64,000 nucleotides of DNA, from the NCBI RefSeq assembly GCF_055900595.2, contig NZ_CM148325.1; one strand, given 5' to 3'. A model generated the notes under the pieces. That model saw only the letters and a list, made by a program, of their open reading frames with translations. It searched no databases and had not been told where the DNA came from. Positions 16,213 to 29,600 of the stretch are shown here, piece after piece (within the stretch, counting starts at the first letter, position 1; each line of letters opens with the position of its first letter). A program made the position numbers and the translations under genes.

Positions 16213-16575
16213 ATGTTTCTAAACTATTTCGCGTTGGGAGTGCTGATCTTCGTCTTTCTGGTGATTTTTTATGTAATCATCGCGATACATGACATCCCTT
16301 ATCTGATTGCCAAAAAGCGCAATCACCCCCATGCCGACGCTATTCATACGGCGGGCTGGGTGAGCCTGTTTACTCTGCATGTTATCTGGCCGTTCCTGTG
16401 GATCTGGGCGACGCTCTATCAACCGGAGCGTGGCTGGGGTATGCAGTCACATGTTGCGTCGCAGGAGAAAGCGACTGACCCGGAAATCGCCGCACTTTCT
16501 GACCGAATTTCCCGGCTGGAGCATCAACTCGCCGCCGAGAAAAAGACTGACTATTCCACGTTCCCGGAGATCTAA
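16213..16575 (+). CDS. yibI: DUF3302-family small inner-membrane protein
   Basis: 120-aa ORF with two hydrophobic helices and a C-terminal coiled-coil tail; paralog of the ORF at 26155..26478. Confidence 0.85.
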
Positions 16576-16577
16576 AT

Positions 16578-17714
16578 ATGGATCTATTGATTGTTTTAAC
16601 TTACGTGGCGCTGGCGTGGGCGGTCTTTAAAATCTTCCGCATTCCGGTAAATCAGTGGACGCTGGCGACGGCGGCGCTGGGAGGCGTGTTTCTGGTGAGT
16701 GGTTTGATTTTGTTGATGAACTACAACCACCCTTACACTTTTACCGCACAGAAAGCGGTGATTGCTATTCCCATCACGCCACAGGTGACGGGGATCGTGA
16801 CTGAAGTCACTGACAAGAATAATCAGCTCATTCAGAAGGGCGAGGTGCTTTTTAAGCTCGACCCGGTACGTTATCAGGCGCGAGTCGACAGACTTCAGGC
16901 TGACCTGATGACGGCGACGCATAATATAAAGACACTGCGCGCGCAGCTCACTGAAGCGCAAGCCAATACCACCCAGGTTTCAGCGGAGCGTGACCGCTTG
17001 TTTAAAAATTATCAACGTTACCTGAAAGGCAGCCAAGCGGCGGTAAATCCGTTCTCAGAACGTGATATCGACGATGCGCGGCAGAATTTTCTCGCGCAGG
17101 ATGCGCTGGTGAAAGGCTCGGTGGCGGAACAGGCGCAAATCCAGAGCCAGCTCGACAGTATGGTTAACGGTGAGCAGTCGCAGATTGTCAGCTTAAGGGC
17201 GCAGCTTACCGAAGCGAAATATAACCTTGAGCAGACCGTCATTCGCGCGCCGAGCAATGGCTACGTCACTCAGGTGCTGATCCGCCCAGGTACATACGCA
17301 GCTGCCTTGCCGTTGCGTCCGGTAATGGTTTTCATCCCTGAGCAAAAACGGCAAATTGTCGCCCAATTTCGGCAAAACTCGCTGTTACGTCTGAAACCCG
17401 GCGATGATGCGGAAGTGGTGTTTAACGCGCTACCTGGGCAGGTGTTCCACGGCAAACTGACTAGTATTTTACCTGTCGTGCCAGGCGGTTCGTATCAGGC
17501 GCAAGGGGTATTGCAATCATTAACGGTCGTGCCCGGCACGGACGGTGTGCTGGGAACCATTGAACTGGACCCTAACGATGATATCGATGCTTTACCCGAC
17601 GGCATCTACGCCCAGGTGGCAGTTTACTCCGACCATTTCAGCCATGTTTCGGTGATGCGGAAGGTGCTGCTAAGAATGACCAGTTGGATGCATTATCTTT
17701 ATTTGGATCATTGA
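16578..17714 (+). CDS. yibH: HlyD-family membrane-fusion (periplasmic adaptor) protein
   Basis: 378-aa ORF with N-terminal TM helix, coiled-coil region and beta-barrel domain; starts 2 bp after yibI; paralog of yiaV. Confidence 0.85.
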
Positions 17715-17784
17715 GACTTGTATCACCTGTGTTTTGCGCGAGCCTGAGCCATACTGATATTTTTCCTCGCACAAAGGACTCGGC

Positions 17785-21912: not shown

Positions 21913-23032
21913 ATGGCAGCTTCAACCTTTTTTATTCCTTCCGTGAATGTTATCGGCGCTGATTCATTGAATGATGCAATGAATATGATGGCAGATTATG
22001 GATTTACCCGTACCTTAATTGTCACCGACAATATGTTAACGAAATTGGGTATGGCGGGTGATGTGCAAAAAGCACTGGAAGAACGCAATATTTTTAGCGT
22101 TATTTATGATGGCACCCAACCTAACCCCACCACGGAAAACGTCGCTGCAGGTTTGAAATTACTTAAAGAAAATAATTGCGATAGCGTGATTTCCTTAGGC
22201 GGTGGTTCTCCACACGACTGCGCAAAAGGTATTGCGCTGGTTGCAGCCAACGGCGGTGACATCCGCGATTATGAAGGCGTTGACCGCTCTGCAAAACCGC
22301 AGTTGCCGATGATCGCCATCAACACCACGGCGGGTACGGCATCAGAAATGACCCGTTTTTGCATCATCACCGATGAAGCACGTCACTCCGCTGCTTTCTG
22401 TCAATGACTCCTCGCTGATGATCGGTATGCCGAAGTCACTGACCGCTGCAACGGGTATGGATGCCTTAACGCACGCTATCGAAGCGTATGTGTCTATTGC
22501 CGCCACGCCGATCACCGACGCTTGCGCACTGAAAGCGGTGACTATGATTGCCGAAAACCTGCCCTTAGCCGTTGAAGATGGCAGCAATGAGAAAGCGCGC
22601 GAAGCAATGGCTTACGCTCAGTTCCTCGCGGGTATGGCGTTCAACAATGCGTCTCTGGGTTATGTTCATGCGATGGCGCACCAGTTAGGTGGTTTCTACA
22701 ATCTGCCGCACGGTGTATGTAACGCCGTTCTGCTGCCGCACGTTCAGGTATTCAACAGTAAAGTCGCTGCTGCACGTTTGCGTGACTGCGCTGCCGCGAT
22801 GGGTGTTAACGTGACAGGTAAAAACGACGCGGAAGGTGCAGAAGCCTGCATCAATGCCATCCGTGAACTGGCGAAGAAAGTGAATATCCCGGCAGGCTTG
22901 CGTGACCTGAACGTGAAAGAAGAAGATTTCGCGGTACTTGCGACCAATGCCCTGAAAGATGCCTGCGGCTTTACTAACCCGATTCAGGCAACTCACGAAG
23001 AAATTGTGGCGATTTATCGCGCGGCGATGTAA
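21913..23032 (+). pseudogene. yiaY: Iron-containing alcohol dehydrogenase YiaY, split by a frameshift near 22375-22405
   Basis: Two ORFs in different frames (21913..22407, 164 aa; 22373..23032, 219 aa) together cover one Fe-ADH; about 10 residues between ...CIITDEARH and [32 protein letters not shown] are missing relative to family members such as FucO. Confidence 0.7.
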
Positions 23033-24783: not shown

Positions 24784-24830
24784 GTCGCATCGGGTATTCA
24801 TTGCCTGATGCGACGCTTTCGCGTTTTACC
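24784..24830 (+). terminator. REP-like hairpin and T-rich tail downstream of aldB
   Basis: gtcgcatc ... gatgcgac inverted repeat followed by gctttcgcgtttt. Confidence 0.55.
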
Positions 24831-25000
24831 AATTCAAATGTCTACGTCTTGAATGACTGAATATTGATTGAACTTAATTACGAGTCTCCTCGCATCTTTT
24901 CAACAAGTTACTGCACACCGTTATTCTTCTTCCGAACGGCATTCCTGAGTCAACTTTATCTCCCTGACGGCCCATATAAATCGCGCTATCGTGATTGTTA

Positions 25001-25031
25001 TTGCTAAGTGTGTGTGTATCGTGTGTATAAT
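25001..25031 (+). promoter_or_regulatory. Putative sigma70 promoter of hicAB with direct repeats
   Basis: -35 ttgcta (25001..25006) and -10 tataat (25026..25031); the direct repeat gtgtgtat x2 overlaps the -10 region. Confidence 0.5.
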
Positions 25032-25048
25032 CATGGAAGGGCAGGGAT

Positions 25049-25234
25049 GTGAAAAGTGCAGACGTGATCGCCATCCTGAAGCAGCATGGCTGGGAACATA
25101 TTCGAACCCGTGGTAGTCATCATCAGTTCCGCCACCCTGTCCATCCGGGTCTGGTGACGGTTCCGCACCCTAAAAAAGATATTAAGCCCGGTACGCTGGC
25201 GCAAATTGGGCGTCAGGCTGGTTTAACATTTTAA
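25049..25234 (+). CDS. hicA: HicA-family toxin (61 aa)
   Basis: GTG start; small basic protein with RGSHH and PHP-KDIKPGTL-I-RQAGL motifs; 16 bp upstream of the antitoxin gene. Confidence 0.8.
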   Translation: MKSADVIAILKQHGWEHIRTRGSHHQFRHPVHPGLVTVPHPKKDIKPGTLAQIGRQAGLTF

Positions 25235-25250
25235 AATTTCAGGAGGCAAT

Positions 25251-25661
25251 ATGTTTTATCCCGCCTATATCCACAGTGATCCTGACGGCAGCGCCAGCGG
25301 TTTTTTCCCTGATGTTCCAGGCTGTTATTTTGCTGGTGATACGCTGGACAACGCTTTCCAGGATGCGCGAAGTGCACTGGTCGCGCACTTCGAAACCTTA
25401 TGCGAGATGAATGAAGAGTTGCCGCTTCCAGGCTCTGTGGAAACACATCTGGTCCAGCGTGCGCAGGACTTTATTGGCGGGCAATGGTTGCTGGTGGATA
25501 TCAATATGAATCAGTTCGAAGGTCGGGCTGAACGTATCAATATTACGATGCCGAAAAGATTACTGAACAAGATTGATACCTACGTGCGCAATAACCCAGA
25601 CTACGCCAACAGAAGTGCGTTTCTGGCGGAAGCTGCCCGGCGTGTATTGCCGGGCGTTTAA
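25251..25661 (+). CDS. hicB: HicB-family antitoxin with C-terminal ribbon-helix-helix DNA-binding domain (136 aa)
   Basis: Strong SD aggagg 7 nt upstream; C-terminal RHH-like segment NRSAFLAEAARRVL. Confidence 0.8.
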   Translation: MFYPAYIHSDPDGSASGFFPDVPGCYFAGDTLDNAFQDARSALVAHFETLCEMNEELPLPGSVETHLVQRAQDFIGGQWLLVDINMNQFEGRAERINITMPKRLLNKIDTYVRNNPDYANRSAFLAEAARRVLPGV

Positions 25662-26041
25662 TCTCGCGTTTCGATGGTGAGCGGGCGGACCAGGCTGTAC
25701 AGCCACAGACCAAAACAAGCGATGGTGCCAATCACCACGGTGAGGAACACACTGACTGACAGGCCTGCAAGCAATCCCGCAGGCAGGGCCAGCAGGCCGT
25801 GGATCACGGTGTCGTTCCATCTCACCTGATCGTAGCCAAACATGCCTAAAACGCCGCAAACCAGACCGTAAATCACCATTGGTGTTCCGAGGCCAATCAG
25901 CAATAAACGGTAGATAATTGAAGGTTTAATACGCTTTATCTGTACTGTGGATGTTTTACTGGGGTTATTCATTAGTTTGGTCAATAGTTCCATTATTTCA
26001 ATATGATAAACCTCGACCTGTTGAAAAGCCAGGTAGCACAC
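25658..26041 (-). CDS. Small hydrophobic membrane protein of unknown function (about 111-127 aa)
   Basis: ORF with two or three predicted TM helices; start uncertain (GTG at 26041 or ATG at 25993); 3' end overlaps the hicB stop by 4 bp. Confidence 0.45.
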   Translation of the reverse strand: MCYLAFQQVEVYHIEIMELLTKLMNNPSKTSTVQIKRIKPSIIYRLLLIGLGTPMVIYGLVCGVLGMFGYDQVRWNDTVIHGLLALPAGLLAGLSVSVFLTVVIGTIACFGLWLYSLVRPLTIETRD

Positions 26042-26154
26042 TTCAGAAAGTATATAAAAAACAATATGTCGTTATATAAATAAGGAAATTGCACTGCATC
26101 ATGGCATTTCATAATATGCGTTAATTGTTCTTTTTTATATTCTCTGAGGGAAAT

Positions 26155-26478
26155 ATGTTCCTGGACTATTTTGCACTGGGAGTGCTTATTTTTGTATTTC
26201 TGGTGATATTCTATGGGATTATTATTTTACATGATATTCCCTACCTGATTGCTAAAAAACGTAATCATCCTCATGCCGACGCCATTCATGTTGCTGGTTG
26301 GGTGAGTCTTTTTACGCTGCATGTTATCTGGCCATTTTTGTGGATTTGGGCCACGCTTTACCGCCCGGAGCGGGGATGGGGAATGCAAAACCATGACTCC
26401 TCCGTTGTGCAACTACAACAGCGTATTGCCGGGCTGGAGAAACAGCTCGCCGACATCAAATCCTCTTCTGCCGAGTAA
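26155..26478 (+). CDS. yiaW: DUF3302-family small inner-membrane protein
   Basis: ORF 26125..26478; start taken at MFLDYFALG with SD gaggg upstream (107 aa); paralog of yibI. Confidence 0.85.
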
Positions 26479-26483
26479 TACTT

Positions 26484-27620
26484 ATGGATTTACTGATTAT
26501 TTTGACCTATGTGGCTTTCGCATGGGCAATGTTTAAGATCTTCAAAATTCCTGTAAATAAATGGACCATTCCCACCGCGGCCCTGGGTGGCATATTTATT
26601 GTCAGCGGTCTAATTCTGTTAATGAACTATAACCATCCGTATACCTTTAAAGCGCAAAAAGCGGTTATTTCTATTCCTGTTGTCCCGCAGGTGACAGGCG
26701 TGGTGATCGAAGTGACGGACAAGAAAAATACGCTGATTAAAAAAGGTGAGGTGCTATTTCGACTGGACCCGACGCGTTATCAGGCGCGGGTGGATCGGCT
26801 GATGGCGGATATCGTTACCGCAGAACATAAACAGCGGGCGTTGGGCGCAGAGTTAGATGAGATGGCGGCGAATACTCAGCAGGCAAAGGCCACGCGGGAT
26901 AAATTCGCTAAAGAGTACCAGCGTTACGCACGCGGCAGCCAGGCGAAAGTAAACCCGTTTTCAGAACGCGATATTGATGTGGCGCGGCAAAATTATCTGG
27001 CGCAGGAAGCCTCCGTAAAGTCATCGGCGGCGGAACAAAAACAGATCCAGAGCCAGCTGGATAGCCTGGTGTTGGGTGAACATTCTCAAATCGCCAGCCT
27101 GAAAGCGCAGCTCGCGGAAGCAAAATATAACCTTGAGCAGACGATAGTGCGTGCGCCGAGCGATGGTTATGTGACCCAAGTGCTGATTCGTCCGGGTACC
27201 TATGCCGCATCGCTGCCGCTACGTCCTGTGATGGTGTTTATACCCGATCAGAAACGACAAATTGTGGCGCAGTTCCGTCAGAACTCCTTGCTGCGACTGG
27301 CTCCCGGCGATGATGCGGAAGTGGTGTTTAATGCTCTGCCAGGTAAGGTATTCAGCGGTAAGCTGGCAGCCATTAGCCCAGCTGTTCCCGGCGGAGCTTA
27401 TCAGTCGACCGGCACCTTACAGACGTTAAACACAGCACCGGGTTCAGATGGCGTTATCGCGACCATTGAACTGGATGAGCACACTGAGTTGAGCGCTTTA
27501 CCAGACGGTATTTACGCCCAGGTGGCGGTTTACTCTGATCATTTCAGCCATGTCTCGGTGATGCGCAAAGTGCTGTTACGCATGACCAGTTGGGTGCATT
27601 ACCTTTATCTCGATCATTAA
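26484..27620 (+). CDS. yiaV: HlyD-family membrane-fusion protein
   Basis: 378-aa ORF; paralog of yibH; starts 5 bp after yiaW. Confidence 0.85.
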
Positions 27621-28591
27621 TCTTCGCTTTCCGCCGCTTGTTCAGGCCGCAGTTGCTGCGACTGAGCAAGCTGGTGGCGAATTTCACGCAGCATTTCATC
27701 CAGCACATACTGGACCCGCCAGGGCTGGTATTCCCGTTTACGGAAGATAGCCACCAGATCCAGCCACCATTCATACGGTTGCTGAAAGCAGGGCACCAGC
27801 GTGCCGTCTTGCAGGTCGCTCTGCACACTTTTGTCTGGCGCAAACACAATCCCCAGGTGATTTCGTGCCAGCTCCAGCGCCGATTGCGTGTTGTCGCAAA
27901 CGTAATTTCCCTTCACGCGATAATCCCGCACCTCTTTACTCCCGGCGACGTTGAAGCGCCAGATATTCGCGTCGTCGATCATCATCGAGTCGATCAAAAT
28001 ACAGGAGTGATGTTCGAGTTCGTCAGGACGGCTAATGGGATGTTTCTCAAGATAGCGCTGACTGGCATAAGCGGTTACGGCATATTGCGTAATAAAACTG
28101 GCAACCAGCGATTCATCTTTTGGTGGAGCATAGCTGATTAAAACATCACAATCATCGGGAAATTCGACACCTTCATAAAAGGCATTACGCTCAAGATTGC
28201 AGGTTTTTAGCGATAAGGTGATATCACCGATATCTTTAATTTTATCGATAACATGTTTGGATAAATAGGTAATTATGCCGGTTGGGGCGTAGATGGTGAC
28301 CCGACCACGTTTCTCATGCTTATAATCTGCAATAAAATTATTAAGTTGCTCGTTTCTGTCCAGCATGTCGTTGATGTACGGTAACAGCGCGGTACCAAAA
28401 GGTGTGAGCATCAGCTGCCGGGTGGTTCGGTCAAAGACTTTTAAACCTACTTTTGATTCAAAATCAGCAAGATATTTGCTGACGTTGGCCTGTGCGAATC
28501 CAAGTACAGTCGCGGCATGGCTGATATTTTCACTGGCAGCGATTACCGAGATAATTTTTAACTCCCGGTACTTAAGTTGTAATTTTGTCAT
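27617..28591 (-). CDS. yiaU: LysR-family transcriptional regulator
   Basis: 324-aa ORF with N-terminal HTH; convergent with yiaV (4-bp overlap), divergent from yiaT. Confidence 0.85.
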
Positions 28592-28714
28592 CGCAACAGC
28601 CCAATTATATATAATTTTATATATTACTATATAAATATGAATCTTGCACCGGAGAAATTGTAAGCATTATTATGCCGACTCTTTTTTATCTTATTTTAAA
28701 ATGGAATACCGGAC

Positions 28715-29455
28715 ATGTTAATTAACCGCAATATTGTAGCGTTATTTACGTTGCCTTTTATGGCAAGCGCTACTGCTTCTGAATTATCCATTGGTGCTGG
28801 TGCAGCTTATAATGAATCGCCTTATCGTGGTTATAATGAAAATACAAAGGCAATTCCGCTGATTAGTTATGAAGGTGATTCTTTTTATGTTCGTCAGACC
28901 ACGTTAGGTTTTATTCTGTCGCAAAGTGAAAAAAATGAACTTAGCCTGACCGCATCCTGGATGCCGCTGGAATTTGACCCTGCAGATAATGACGATCATG
29001 CCATGCAACAGCTTGATAAGCGTGATAGTACGGCTATGGCGGGGGTTGCCTGGTATCACCACGAGCGTTGGGGAACCGTGAAAGCCTCTGCGGCTGCGGA
29101 CGTTCTGGATAACAGCAACGGCTGGGTGGGGGAGCTATCGGTATTTCACAAAATGCAGATAGGTCGCCTGTCGCTGACACCTGCACTGGGCGTTCTCTAT
29201 TATGACGAGAATTTCAGTGACTATTACTATGGCATTTCAGAGAGTGAGTCCCGTCGTAGCGGTCTGGCAAGTTATTCCGCGCAGGATGCTTGGGTGCCCT
29301 ATGTCAGCCTGACGGCAAAATACCCGATAGGAGAGCACATCGTATTGATGGCGAGTGCCGGATACAGCGAGCTGCCGGAAGAGATTACCGACAGCCCGAT
29401 GATTGATCGTAATGAGAGTTTTACCTTTGTCACCGGCGTGAGCTGGCGTTTTTAA
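28715..29455 (+). CDS. yiaT: MipA/OmpV-family outer-membrane protein
   Basis: 246-aa ORF with signal peptide and a terminal aromatic residue (…VSWRF). Confidence 0.8.
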   Translation: MLINRNIVALFTLPFMASATASELSIGAGAAYNESPYRGYNENTKAIPLISYEGDSFYVRQTTLGFILSQSEKNELSLTASWMPLEFDPADNDDHAMQQLDKRDSTAMAGVAWYHHERWGTVKASAAADVLDNSNGWVGELSVFHKMQIGRLSLTPALGVLYYDENFSDYYYGISESESRRSGLASYSAQDAWVPYVSLTAKYPIGEHIVLMASAGYSELPEEITDSPMIDRNESFTFVTGVSWRF

Positions 29456-29469
29456 TTTACCGGTGGATG

Positions 29470-29600
29470 TCGGTGCGGCTGGCCTACGCTCTCGCACTGA
29501 CCTTCAGGCTTGATAAGACGCGTTAAGCGTCGCATCAGGCAATGTGCACCCTACGTTGGATGCGGCGCGAGCGCCTTATCCAACCTACGGATGGCAATGC
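29470..29600. repeat. REP element pair between yiaT and the GH127 gene
   Basis: gcctacgctctcgcactgaccttcaggcttgataagacgcgttaagcgtcgcatcaggca ... ggatgcggcgcgagcgccttatccaacctacgg. Confidence 0.7.

Follow-up and report, generated by a model that had tools for sequence, protein, structure and literature searches.

The 64-kb window analyzed here is a segment of the E. coli chromosome, and all coordinates given below are window positions. At 26155-27620 it carries the gene pair yiaW-yiaV, which encodes a small DUF3302 inner-membrane protein together with a periplasmic adaptor of the HlyD family. With moderate confidence, we consider this pair an old duplicate of yibI-yibH that encodes an EmrA-like adaptor pair of the TolC type and that is co-regulated with the nearby gene yiaT by the LysR-type regulator YiaU. 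The genes yiaWVUT are annotated in K-12 (b3584-b3587), the paralogy is known and the regulator has already been studied; hence they are not novel, and the pair by itself adds little. What is new here is an upstream element shared by yiaW and yiaT, the matching prevalence of yiaWV and yiaUT, the closeness of YiaV to EmrA, and the TolC-family and CPA1-like genes that neighbour the module elsewhere.

The yiaW-yiaV module and its paralogue yibI-yibH

The gene yiaW (26155-26478, + strand) encodes a DUF3302 inner-membrane protein of 107 aa with two hydrophobic helices and a coiled-coil-like C-terminal tail, and a GAGGG Shine-Dalgarno sequence is located 6 nt 5′ of its ATG. After a gap of 5 bp it is followed by yiaV (26484-27620, +), encoding a 378-aa HlyD-family periplasmic adaptor. 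The paralogous DUF3302 gene yibI (16213-16575, +) and the adaptor gene yibH (16578-17714, +) are separated by 2 bp. Downstream, yiaV converges with yiaU (27617-28591, −; its product is also named LpsR or CsuR), which encodes a LysR-type regulator; the stop codons of both genes overlap (yiaV 27618-27620, +; yiaU 27617-27619, −), resulting in 4 bp of shared coding sequence. The start of yiaU (28591, −) lies back to back with that of yiaT (28715-29455, +), leaving a spacer of 123 bp, and yiaT encodes an outer-membrane protein of the MipA/OmpV family according to RefSeq and Pfam (MipA, 1.6e-52). The first-pass annotation of this DNA, made from the letters alone, had placed the open reading frames of yiaW and yiaV exactly, and the convergence with a 4-bp overlap and the divergent arrangement of yiaU and yiaT that it had described were confirmed. 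In RefSeq E. coli genomes, including K-12, genes in the identical arrangement bear the names yiaW, yiaV, yiaU and yiaT. In strain MFDS1022581, which is 99.9% identical over window positions 24800-29600, the order is aldB, hicA, hicB, a hypothetical gene, yiaW, yiaV, yiaU and yiaT; in K-12, aldB, yiaW, yiaV, yiaU and yiaT carry the same names and hicAB is not there.

YiaU matched many LysR-family models over its full length, every score staying below the equivalog cut-off. No strong terminator was found at the convergent 3′ ends of yiaV and yiaU. Since the two ends also overlap, transcription of one gene probably interferes with that of the other. The 4-bp coding overlap lacking a strong terminator resembles the convergent excludons, and ExcludonFinder indeed lists yiaU-yiaV among those of K-12 (PMC12288877).

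Aligned over their entire length (16213-17714 against 26155-27620), the two modules are identical in 70.6% of all columns and in 74.3% of the ungapped columns, so that the DNA identity of roughly 80% estimated by eye in the first-pass annotation was too high. The adaptor genes yiaV and yibH are of equal length and differ, without any gap, at 338 of 1137 nt (70.3% identity; 83, 47 and 208 differences at the first, second and third codon positions). On the protein level, YiaV and YibH share 291 of 378 residues (77%), and YiaW and YibI are ~91% identical over the DUF3302 core and have unrelated C-terminal tails. Only 49-52% of the columns align in the 300 bp flanking the modules on each side (174 and 183 of 355, with 110 gap columns each), and the flanks were consequently treated as unrelated. 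Synonymous sites of yiaV and yibH are saturated (proportion of synonymous differences, pS = 0.74; nonsynonymous distance, dN = 0.178), and both genes of the pair are under purifying selection, as indicated by nonsynonymous proportions (pN) of 0.05-0.16 versus pS values of 0.74-0.80. The saturation together with the purifying selection on both copies argues for an old duplication, and the colinearity of the units upholds the earlier proposal that the two-gene unit was duplicated as a whole. Identity between YiaV and YibH varies considerably along the protein, with 56% in the first helix of the hairpin, 89% at its tip, 83% in the N-terminal membrane segment and 96% in the C-terminal helix; as far as sequence comparison goes, this focus of divergence on hairpin helix 1 suggests a specialisation of YiaV versus YibH.

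YiaV is 73-78% identical to all other enterobacterial homologues, and YibH is 78-84% identical to the genes of Serratia, Yersinia, Pantoea and Budvicia. In a neighbour-joining tree, the YiaV clade branches outside every other enterobacterial homologue, a position that would fit an ancient duplication followed by losses, accelerated evolution, or transfer.

Residues 3-79 of YiaW match the Pfam DUF3302 model (PF11742) from position 1 to 77 of 77 with an E-value of 2.2e-43. The protein shows the pattern of this family, with two hydrophobic helices (hydropathy peaks at residues 1-16 and 44-50, given as starts of the scoring segment) flanking an HDIPY...RNHPH.DAI loop, and with a WP..W.W motif. Residues P29, H38, P39, W49, W59, P60 and W65 are invariant among 22 diverse DUF3302 sequences, in keeping with a small family of high conservation. 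Searching 1.84 billion proteins yielded 883 DUF3302 representatives at E ≤ 1e-3, the best 150 of which are 70-229 residues long and carry no fusions. Comparison of YiaW with the PDB gave chance matches only, and homology between DUF3302 and a protein of the DUF1656/AaeX family was not detectable by hhalign (probability 0.4%).

For YiaV, Pfam domains CusB_dom_1 (5.6e-14) and HlyD_D23 (1.8e-9) were detected, and its best solved relative by sequence is EmrA (8zar, 6.9e-12). EmrA is also the best fold match obtained with Foldseek (8zal/8zar, E ~1e-18), followed by MacA, AcrA and MexA, all four at a probability of 1.00. An AlphaFold2 model was calculated for a YiaW-linker-YiaV fusion using a paired alignment of 15 rows. 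The periplasmic part of YiaV was modelled with predicted local distance difference test (pLDDT) values of 84-94; two helices of ~55 residues (residues ~97-151 and 161-218) form a hairpin that is flanked by strands and followed by a beta-barrel. YiaV hence displays the lipoyl/barrel-sandwich domain split by an alpha-helical hairpin, plus the beta-barrel, that characterizes a periplasmic adaptor. Membrane helices were modelled at residues 2-35 and 41-68 of YiaW and at ~1-19, 28-50 and 355-376 of YiaV. The loop between the two N-terminal helices of YiaV is rich in lysine, which would place it in the cytoplasm with helix 2 leading to the periplasmic domain. In an alignment reaching from E. coli to a metagenome-assembled genome of the Bacteroidota, the N-terminal segment (...MNYNHP) and the C-terminal helix are strongly conserved, and the hairpin of distant members is ~60 residues shorter than that of E. 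coli. YiaV has been listed as an uncharacterized membrane fusion protein (TCDB 8.A.1.1.4, PMC10971958).

The likeness to EmrA of the EmrAB-TolC system (PDB 8zal, 8zar, 4tko) comprises the long alpha-hairpin, the lipoyl domain, the beta-barrel and the N-terminal membrane anchor. Nevertheless, identity is ~20%, no emrB-like MFS gene is adjacent to yiaV, and unlike EmrA, YiaV possesses two N-terminal hydrophobic helices, a conserved C-terminal helix and a DUF3302 partner. A second comparison concerns aaeXAB and mdtNOP, where, as here, the gene for a small membrane protein directly precedes that of an HlyD-family adaptor and a neighbouring gene encodes a LysR regulator; the best NCBIfam matches of YiaV include MdtN and AaeA. 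The aaeXAB system consists of the small membrane protein AaeX, the adaptor AaeA and the FUSC-type pump AaeB, with the divergent LysR regulator AaeR. In contrast, yiaWV has no adjacent FUSC pump gene, YiaW has no detectable homology to AaeX/DUF1656, and yiaU converges with the yiaWV operon whereas aaeR diverges from aaeXAB.

An upstream element shared by yiaW and yiaT

An AT-rich, operator-like element is located upstream of yiaW at 26045-26096 (+), in which TATATAAATA (26073-26082) is followed after 6 nt by the −35-like TTGCAC (26089-26094). A second copy occupies 28600-28651 (+) in the spacer between yiaU and yiaT, with TATATAAATA at 28628-28637 and TTGCAC at 28644-28649. The pattern TATATAAATA-N6-TTGCA at 26073-26093 and 28628-28648 has the same orientation in both copies and lies 82 and 87 nt before the start codons of yiaW and yiaT, respectively. 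The likeness of the copies reaches ~28 nt further upstream (TATATA...ATAT), giving an element of ~50 bp, and the yiaT copy contains the near-palindrome TTTATATA-TTAC-TATATAAA. Even with up to two mismatches permitted, the window contains no match of the pattern beyond these two (0.18 expected). A 52-nt position weight matrix, scored like the pattern on the same sequences from which it was derived, gave 72.5 for the yiaT copy and 62.2 for the yiaW copy, the next best score in the window being −2.5. At a distance of 15-18 nt, TTGCAC is followed by CATAAT/TAATAT at yiaW and by CATTAT/TATTAT at yiaT, and may thus serve as the −35 box in two promoters of similar layout. The candidate −10 box of yiaWV at 26110-26117 (+), proposed by consensus match, would be CATAAT if the spacer is 15 nt long, or TAATAT if it is 17 nt long.

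When 13 orthologous loci were aligned, the two elements stood out by their conservation from the surrounding intergenic DNA, which has diverged. Each of the 14 yiaWVUT loci examined from Escherichia, Citrobacter and Pseudocitrobacter contains exactly two copies of the pattern, always at these positions, with 10-mer, spacing and orientation retained. Loci of Lelliottia/Enterobacter without yiaWV contain it once, adjoining yiaU, and it is absent at the yibIH loci. The conserved AT-rich, near-palindromic dyad in the spacer of the divergent genes yiaU and yiaT is what is found in systems of a LysR regulator with a divergent target, with the difference that the second copy, at yiaW, is set apart from yiaU by the whole yiaWV operon. 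We infer from position and conservation that the element could be the operator of the adjacent regulator YiaU. As the promoters of yiaW and yiaT carry the same operator-like element, yiaWV and yiaT are probably co-regulated by YiaU.

The distribution of the genes was surveyed in 76 loci with one genome per species; the scan of genome contigs yielded Enterobacterales only, and more distant contexts were drawn from short metagenomic contigs. Among the 76 loci, the order aldB-yiaW-yiaV-yiaU-yiaT is confined to Escherichia, Citrobacter and Pseudocitrobacter. Genomes with the order mtlA-yibI-yibH-yibF-selA are found widely among Enterobacteriaceae. A single copy of the module, in other contexts, is present in Serratia, Yersinia, Pantoea, Rahnella and Budvicia, and in four Lelliottia/Enterobacter loci (L064, L074, L080, L083) aldB is directly followed by yiaU, without yiaWV. 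In 5426 complete E. coli genomes, yibIH was found in 5386 (99%) and is therefore core, whereas yiaWV was present in 3768 and yiaUT in 3722 (~69% each). Thus, yibI-yibH shares the two-gene architecture, including the 378-aa adaptor, with yiaWV, but is a core locus between mtlA and yibF without TATATAAATA-N6-TTGCA, and not an accessory one beside yiaU and yiaT. In strain R9 (NZ_CP107164; locus L214, 23571-27259), aldB abuts a GH127 gene and all four yiaWVUT genes are gone. Judging from the nearly equal prevalence and the junction in R9, yiaWVUT seems to be present or absent as one block, a pattern that could reflect a single deletion event.

Further observations were made in the surveyed loci. 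The GH127 gene of strain R9 is frameshifted, and a Fic-family gene is located between yiaY and aldB of this strain. Some Citrobacter genomes contain a third DUF3302/adaptor copy, 74-78% identical (L072, 8001-10500; L078; L079). Immediately 3′ of this copy follows, on the same strand, a different LysR gene whose product shares 32-34% identity with YiaU, and small helix-turn-helix-like open reading frames lie on the flanks. A LysR gene also lies beside the single-copy module in Serratia silvae (L031), in Rahnella and on a Pantoea plasmid. Altogether, the neighbours of the single-copy modules in other Enterobacterales vary and include, by sequence inspection, a LysR regulator, a BhsA-like protein, a lipoprotein and a PqiB-like protein. 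Two loci outside the Enterobacterales by name, L023 (titled Chryseobacterium sp. 18061) and L061 (a 433-bp contig of a Myxococcus assembly), contain Enterobacteriaceae-like mtlA/yibI/yibH sequence, the MtlA of the former being 91% identical to that of E. coli and the YibI of the latter 72% identical; both assemblies are probably mislabelled or contaminated.

YiaU was reportedly renamed CsuR by Shimada et al. in 2022, independently of its naming as LpsR. CsuR is said to be needed for membrane proteins of unknown function, and one paper cites the CsuR study for yiaV. Effects of YiaU on biofilm and on the sensitivity to complement and antibiotics have been described, and the K-12 RefSeq record describes it as a transcriptional activator. 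In the study that renamed it LpsR, nine YiaU binding sites were reported by chromatin immunoprecipitation with exonuclease digestion (ChIP-exo), and deletion of yiaU raised yiaT by 2.8 log2 in RNA-seq and lowered the waa genes (PMC9068703). A genomic systematic evolution of ligands by exponential enrichment (SELEX) study lists the promoter of a “yiaWV” operon as well as the yiaT/yiaU promoter pair (PMC3946193). The published record on phenotypes of the module genes is scattered, and the effects are modest. IS1 insertions in yiaW appeared as bacteria adapted to macrophages, and a yiaW insertion alone had no macrophage phenotype (PMC5495878). Deletion of yiaW raises the efficiency of Ca2+-mediated transformation. 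In uropathogenic E. coli, yibI is induced in urine, and a yibI mutant is less fit (competitive index 0.33) and shows reduced adhesion. In a 2024 survey of the y-ome, yibH and yibI were grouped into one cluster with other uncharacterized genes.

Neighbourhoods of the module and variable sites nearby

In metagenomic DNA, a YiaV-type adaptor gene lies directly 3′ of 81 of 90 DUF3302 open reading frames, and the same holds for every Enterobacterales locus; wherever enough downstream DNA was available, the DUF3302 gene is followed by the adaptor gene. Five loci (L004, L087, L089, L091, L092) carry a gene of the TolC family (OEP) adjoining the module. In a pattern-based sample of 71 clusters at 90% identity, neighbours within five genes included OEP in 7 clusters, a CPA1-like gene in 12 and both in 5. 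For the 18 clusters with a short hairpin, the counts were 6 for OEP and 7 for CPA. The CPA1-like neighbour has ~400 aa, and its best NCBIfam match is the K+/H+ antiporter model PRK05326, below the cut-off. In seven loci (L089, L100, L101, L105, L162, L192, L209) these genes share one strand and lie 0 to ~200 bp apart. Pairwise identity among the CPA neighbours is only 23-74%, which argues for an old adjacency. Genes for SulP, AspT-like and DMT transporters were occasionally observed beside the module, and no RND, ABC, MFS or FUSC gene was found beside any module examined. In one metagenomic contig of 7216 bp (L209), the module is duplicated in tandem within an operon-like cluster of the order OEP-DUF3302-adaptor-DUF3302-adaptor-CPA1-like.

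No close relative of YiaT is encoded beside yibIH, the single-copy modules of Enterobacterales, or the modules of ~70 metagenomic lineages. YiaT-like neighbours were detected in two E. coli/Citrobacter-like contigs (L151, L098); otherwise a weak match (2.7e-05) was obtained in L123, to a gene two genes upstream of the module on the opposite strand. The outer-membrane-like neighbour in L099 and L106 was considered as a further MipA member and rejected, as it gave a weak OMP_b-brl match only. Likewise, YiaT was dismissed as a TolC-family factor (OEP, PF02321), since it matches MipA only, and an OEP hidden Markov model built for this analysis found no match in the window. The yiaWV operon itself contains no cognate inner-membrane transporter; its upstream neighbours are hicAB and a hypothetical gene, and its downstream neighbour is yiaU.

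The toxin-antitoxin genes hicA (25049-25234, +) and hicB (25251-25661, +) between aldB and yiaW were identified by RefSeq and by Pfam (HicA_toxin 2e-23, HicB_lk_antitox 9e-36). The hicA-hicB island (24829-25855) is polymorphic, and an open reading frame for a hypothetical membrane protein of 104 aa is found at 25658-25972 (−). Of 5426 complete E. coli genomes, 1248 cover at least 80% of the region 24800-29600, which includes the island. Pseudocitrobacter (L011) and Trabulsiella (L025) also contain hicAB in this neighbourhood, at other positions. K-12 is devoid of hicAB but retains a 110-bp remnant of the 3′ end of hicB with 84% identity. The K-12 site may thus be a deletion and not an empty site. 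Hence, the genes of the “hicAB insertion” named in the first-pass annotation are real, but the direction of the event is uncertain.

Two further variable sites were noted. The gene yiaY (21913-23032), encoding an L-threonine/alcohol dehydrogenase, carries a 32-bp deletion at ~22376-22379 in comparison to K-12 and the closest genome. The deletion lies between the short direct repeats GAAGCTCGTCAC and TAAGCACGTGAC and results in two out-of-frame open reading frames (21913-22407 and 22373-23032), so that yiaY of this strain is a probable pseudogene. At 17715-17784, yibF lies directly 3′ of yibH, whereas K-12 has rhsA and associated genes in that neighbourhood and the closest genome has tssI/vgrG genes of type VI secretion just 5′ of yibF; insertions at the yibH/yibF junction seem to vary between strains.

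Proposed function, alternatives and implications

We suggest that yiaW-yiaV forms a two-gene operon which goes back to an old duplication of the core pair yibI-yibH. In Escherichia, Citrobacter and Pseudocitrobacter it is inserted between aldB and yiaU. YiaV would be held in the inner membrane by its N-terminal helical hairpin and would project an alpha-hairpin of ~55 residues per helix. Adaptor hairpins dock on the periplasmic tunnel of a TolC-like channel, as in EmrAB-TolC, MacAB-TolC and AcrAB-TolC. By analogy with EmrA, MacA and AcrA, YiaV may oligomerise into a tube that docks tip-to-tip on TolC. YiaW, a small inner-membrane protein of two helices, would act as the partner with which this type of adaptor is almost always found, and the locus does not encode the inner-membrane transporter that would energise the system. 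In other phyla, the module clusters with a TolC-family gene and frequently also with a CPA1-like one, which suggests a TolC-dependent conduit that is fed by a secondary transporter. YiaT would be a co-regulated envelope protein and not the channel of the system.

Several observations weigh against this proposal. The docking on TolC is derived from the fold alone; the membrane parts of the AlphaFold2 model are of moderate confidence (pLDDT 55-75). YiaV scores far below the NCBIfam cut-offs for EmrA/EmrK (TIGR00998, 112 against 390.8 bits), MdtN (NF007785, 112.2 against 376) and AaeA (NF007850, 63.8 against 400), which points to a separate adaptor subfamily. No TolC, pump or CPA gene is present in the 64-kb window, and in the 35 clusters with the long, E. 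coli-type hairpin, OEP was a neighbour in none and CPA in 4. Identities of the CPA neighbours do not co-vary with those of the adaptors (rho 0.008, compared to 0.46 for CPA and DUF3302, from 28 non-independent pairs). Regarding regulation, the pattern and the matrix were tested on their own source sequences, and H-NS sites have been reported in both spacers by genomic SELEX (PMC3946193). The element is also missing from the waa region of K-12, the site of reported YiaU ChIP-exo binding (best matrix score −7.7 versus 62-72), so that its assignment to YiaU rests on position and conservation, without a tie to published binding. Of the control of its neighbours by YiaU that the first-pass annotation had envisaged, the response of yiaT is confirmed by the deletion data, whereas yiaW and yiaV appear neither in the table of genes affected by the yiaU deletion nor in the supplements (PMC9068703).

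The alternative that survives best, although we consider it unlikely, is that no pump is required and that DUF3302 together with the membrane helices of a YiaV oligomer constitutes the inner-membrane component of a three-part system with an outer-membrane factor. The core of YiaW (H38, P39, W49, W59, P60, W65) and the terminal helices of YiaV are conserved to a degree unusual for a mere anchor, clusters of OEP, DUF3302 and adaptor genes without an adjacent transporter gene exist in four loci (L087, L091, L132, L004), and the pump families RND, ABC, MFS and FUSC were not seen beside any module. However, such a conduit would have no evident energy source, and no structural evidence of a pore was obtained. 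Moreover, a CPA1-like gene recurs beside the module, with SulP, AspT-like and DMT genes occasionally taking this place, and many of the contigs are too short to exclude a pump nearby.

The first-pass annotation had favoured a regulated envelope-spanning system, in which YiaW/YiaV and YiaT form one complex under the control of YiaU. Its regulatory half finds support: common regulation of the yiaWV, yiaU and yiaT block is backed by the operator-like element common to yiaW and yiaT, by the near-equal prevalence of yiaWV and yiaUT with R9 lacking all four genes, and by the response of yiaT to the yiaU deletion. In Escherichia, Citrobacter and Pseudocitrobacter, moreover, all four genes lie side by side. 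Nevertheless, YiaT as the outer-membrane end of the system is improbable. YiaT belongs to the MipA family only and is not a TolC-like channel with a periplasmic tunnel, and the outer-membrane gene that clusters with the module elsewhere is OEP. Furthermore, yibIH, the single-copy modules of Serratia, Yersinia and Pantoea and the metagenomic lineages manage without a close YiaT relative, the L123 match being weak, and Lelliottia/Enterobacter possess aldB-yiaU without yiaWV.

Least probable of all is that yiaWV is a redundant paralogue which backs up yibIH and drifts towards loss, the element being nothing but AT-rich DNA bound by H-NS: the absence of yiaWV from ~30% of the complete E. coli genomes in the face of a core yibIH, the H-NS sites in both spacers and the yiaW insertion without macrophage phenotype (PMC5495878) would fit, but the strong purifying selection on both genes, their intactness across Escherichia, Citrobacter and Pseudocitrobacter, and the retention of an exact 10-mer with its spacing and orientation in 14 loci despite diverged flanks would not be expected of a decaying copy or of non-specific AT-rich DNA, and the contrast between hairpin helix 1 (56%) and the tip (89%) or the C-terminal helix (96%) suggests specialisation instead.

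Beyond the TolC-type adaptor pair co-regulated with yiaT that we favour, a more general view is put forward tentatively and with considerable doubt. DUF3302 proteins and YiaV-type adaptors might constitute a distinct and widespread class of TolC-dependent systems, with either a CPA1-like antiporter or the membrane bundle of DUF3302 and adaptor serving as the engine. E. coli would then possess two orphaned copies that use the unlinked TolC, with yiaWV and yiaT brought into the YiaU regulon by a duplicated operator. If so, the marks of this class would be the double N-terminal membrane helix, the conserved C-terminal helix and the obligate small partner, and neither of the two engines would match the described tripartite pumps of the RND, ABC, MFS or FUSC type. 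The shared operator, the matching prevalence, and the TolC-family and CPA1-like neighbours turn what has been a vague “putative efflux component” into testable hypotheses on the partners and the regulation of YiaW and YiaV.

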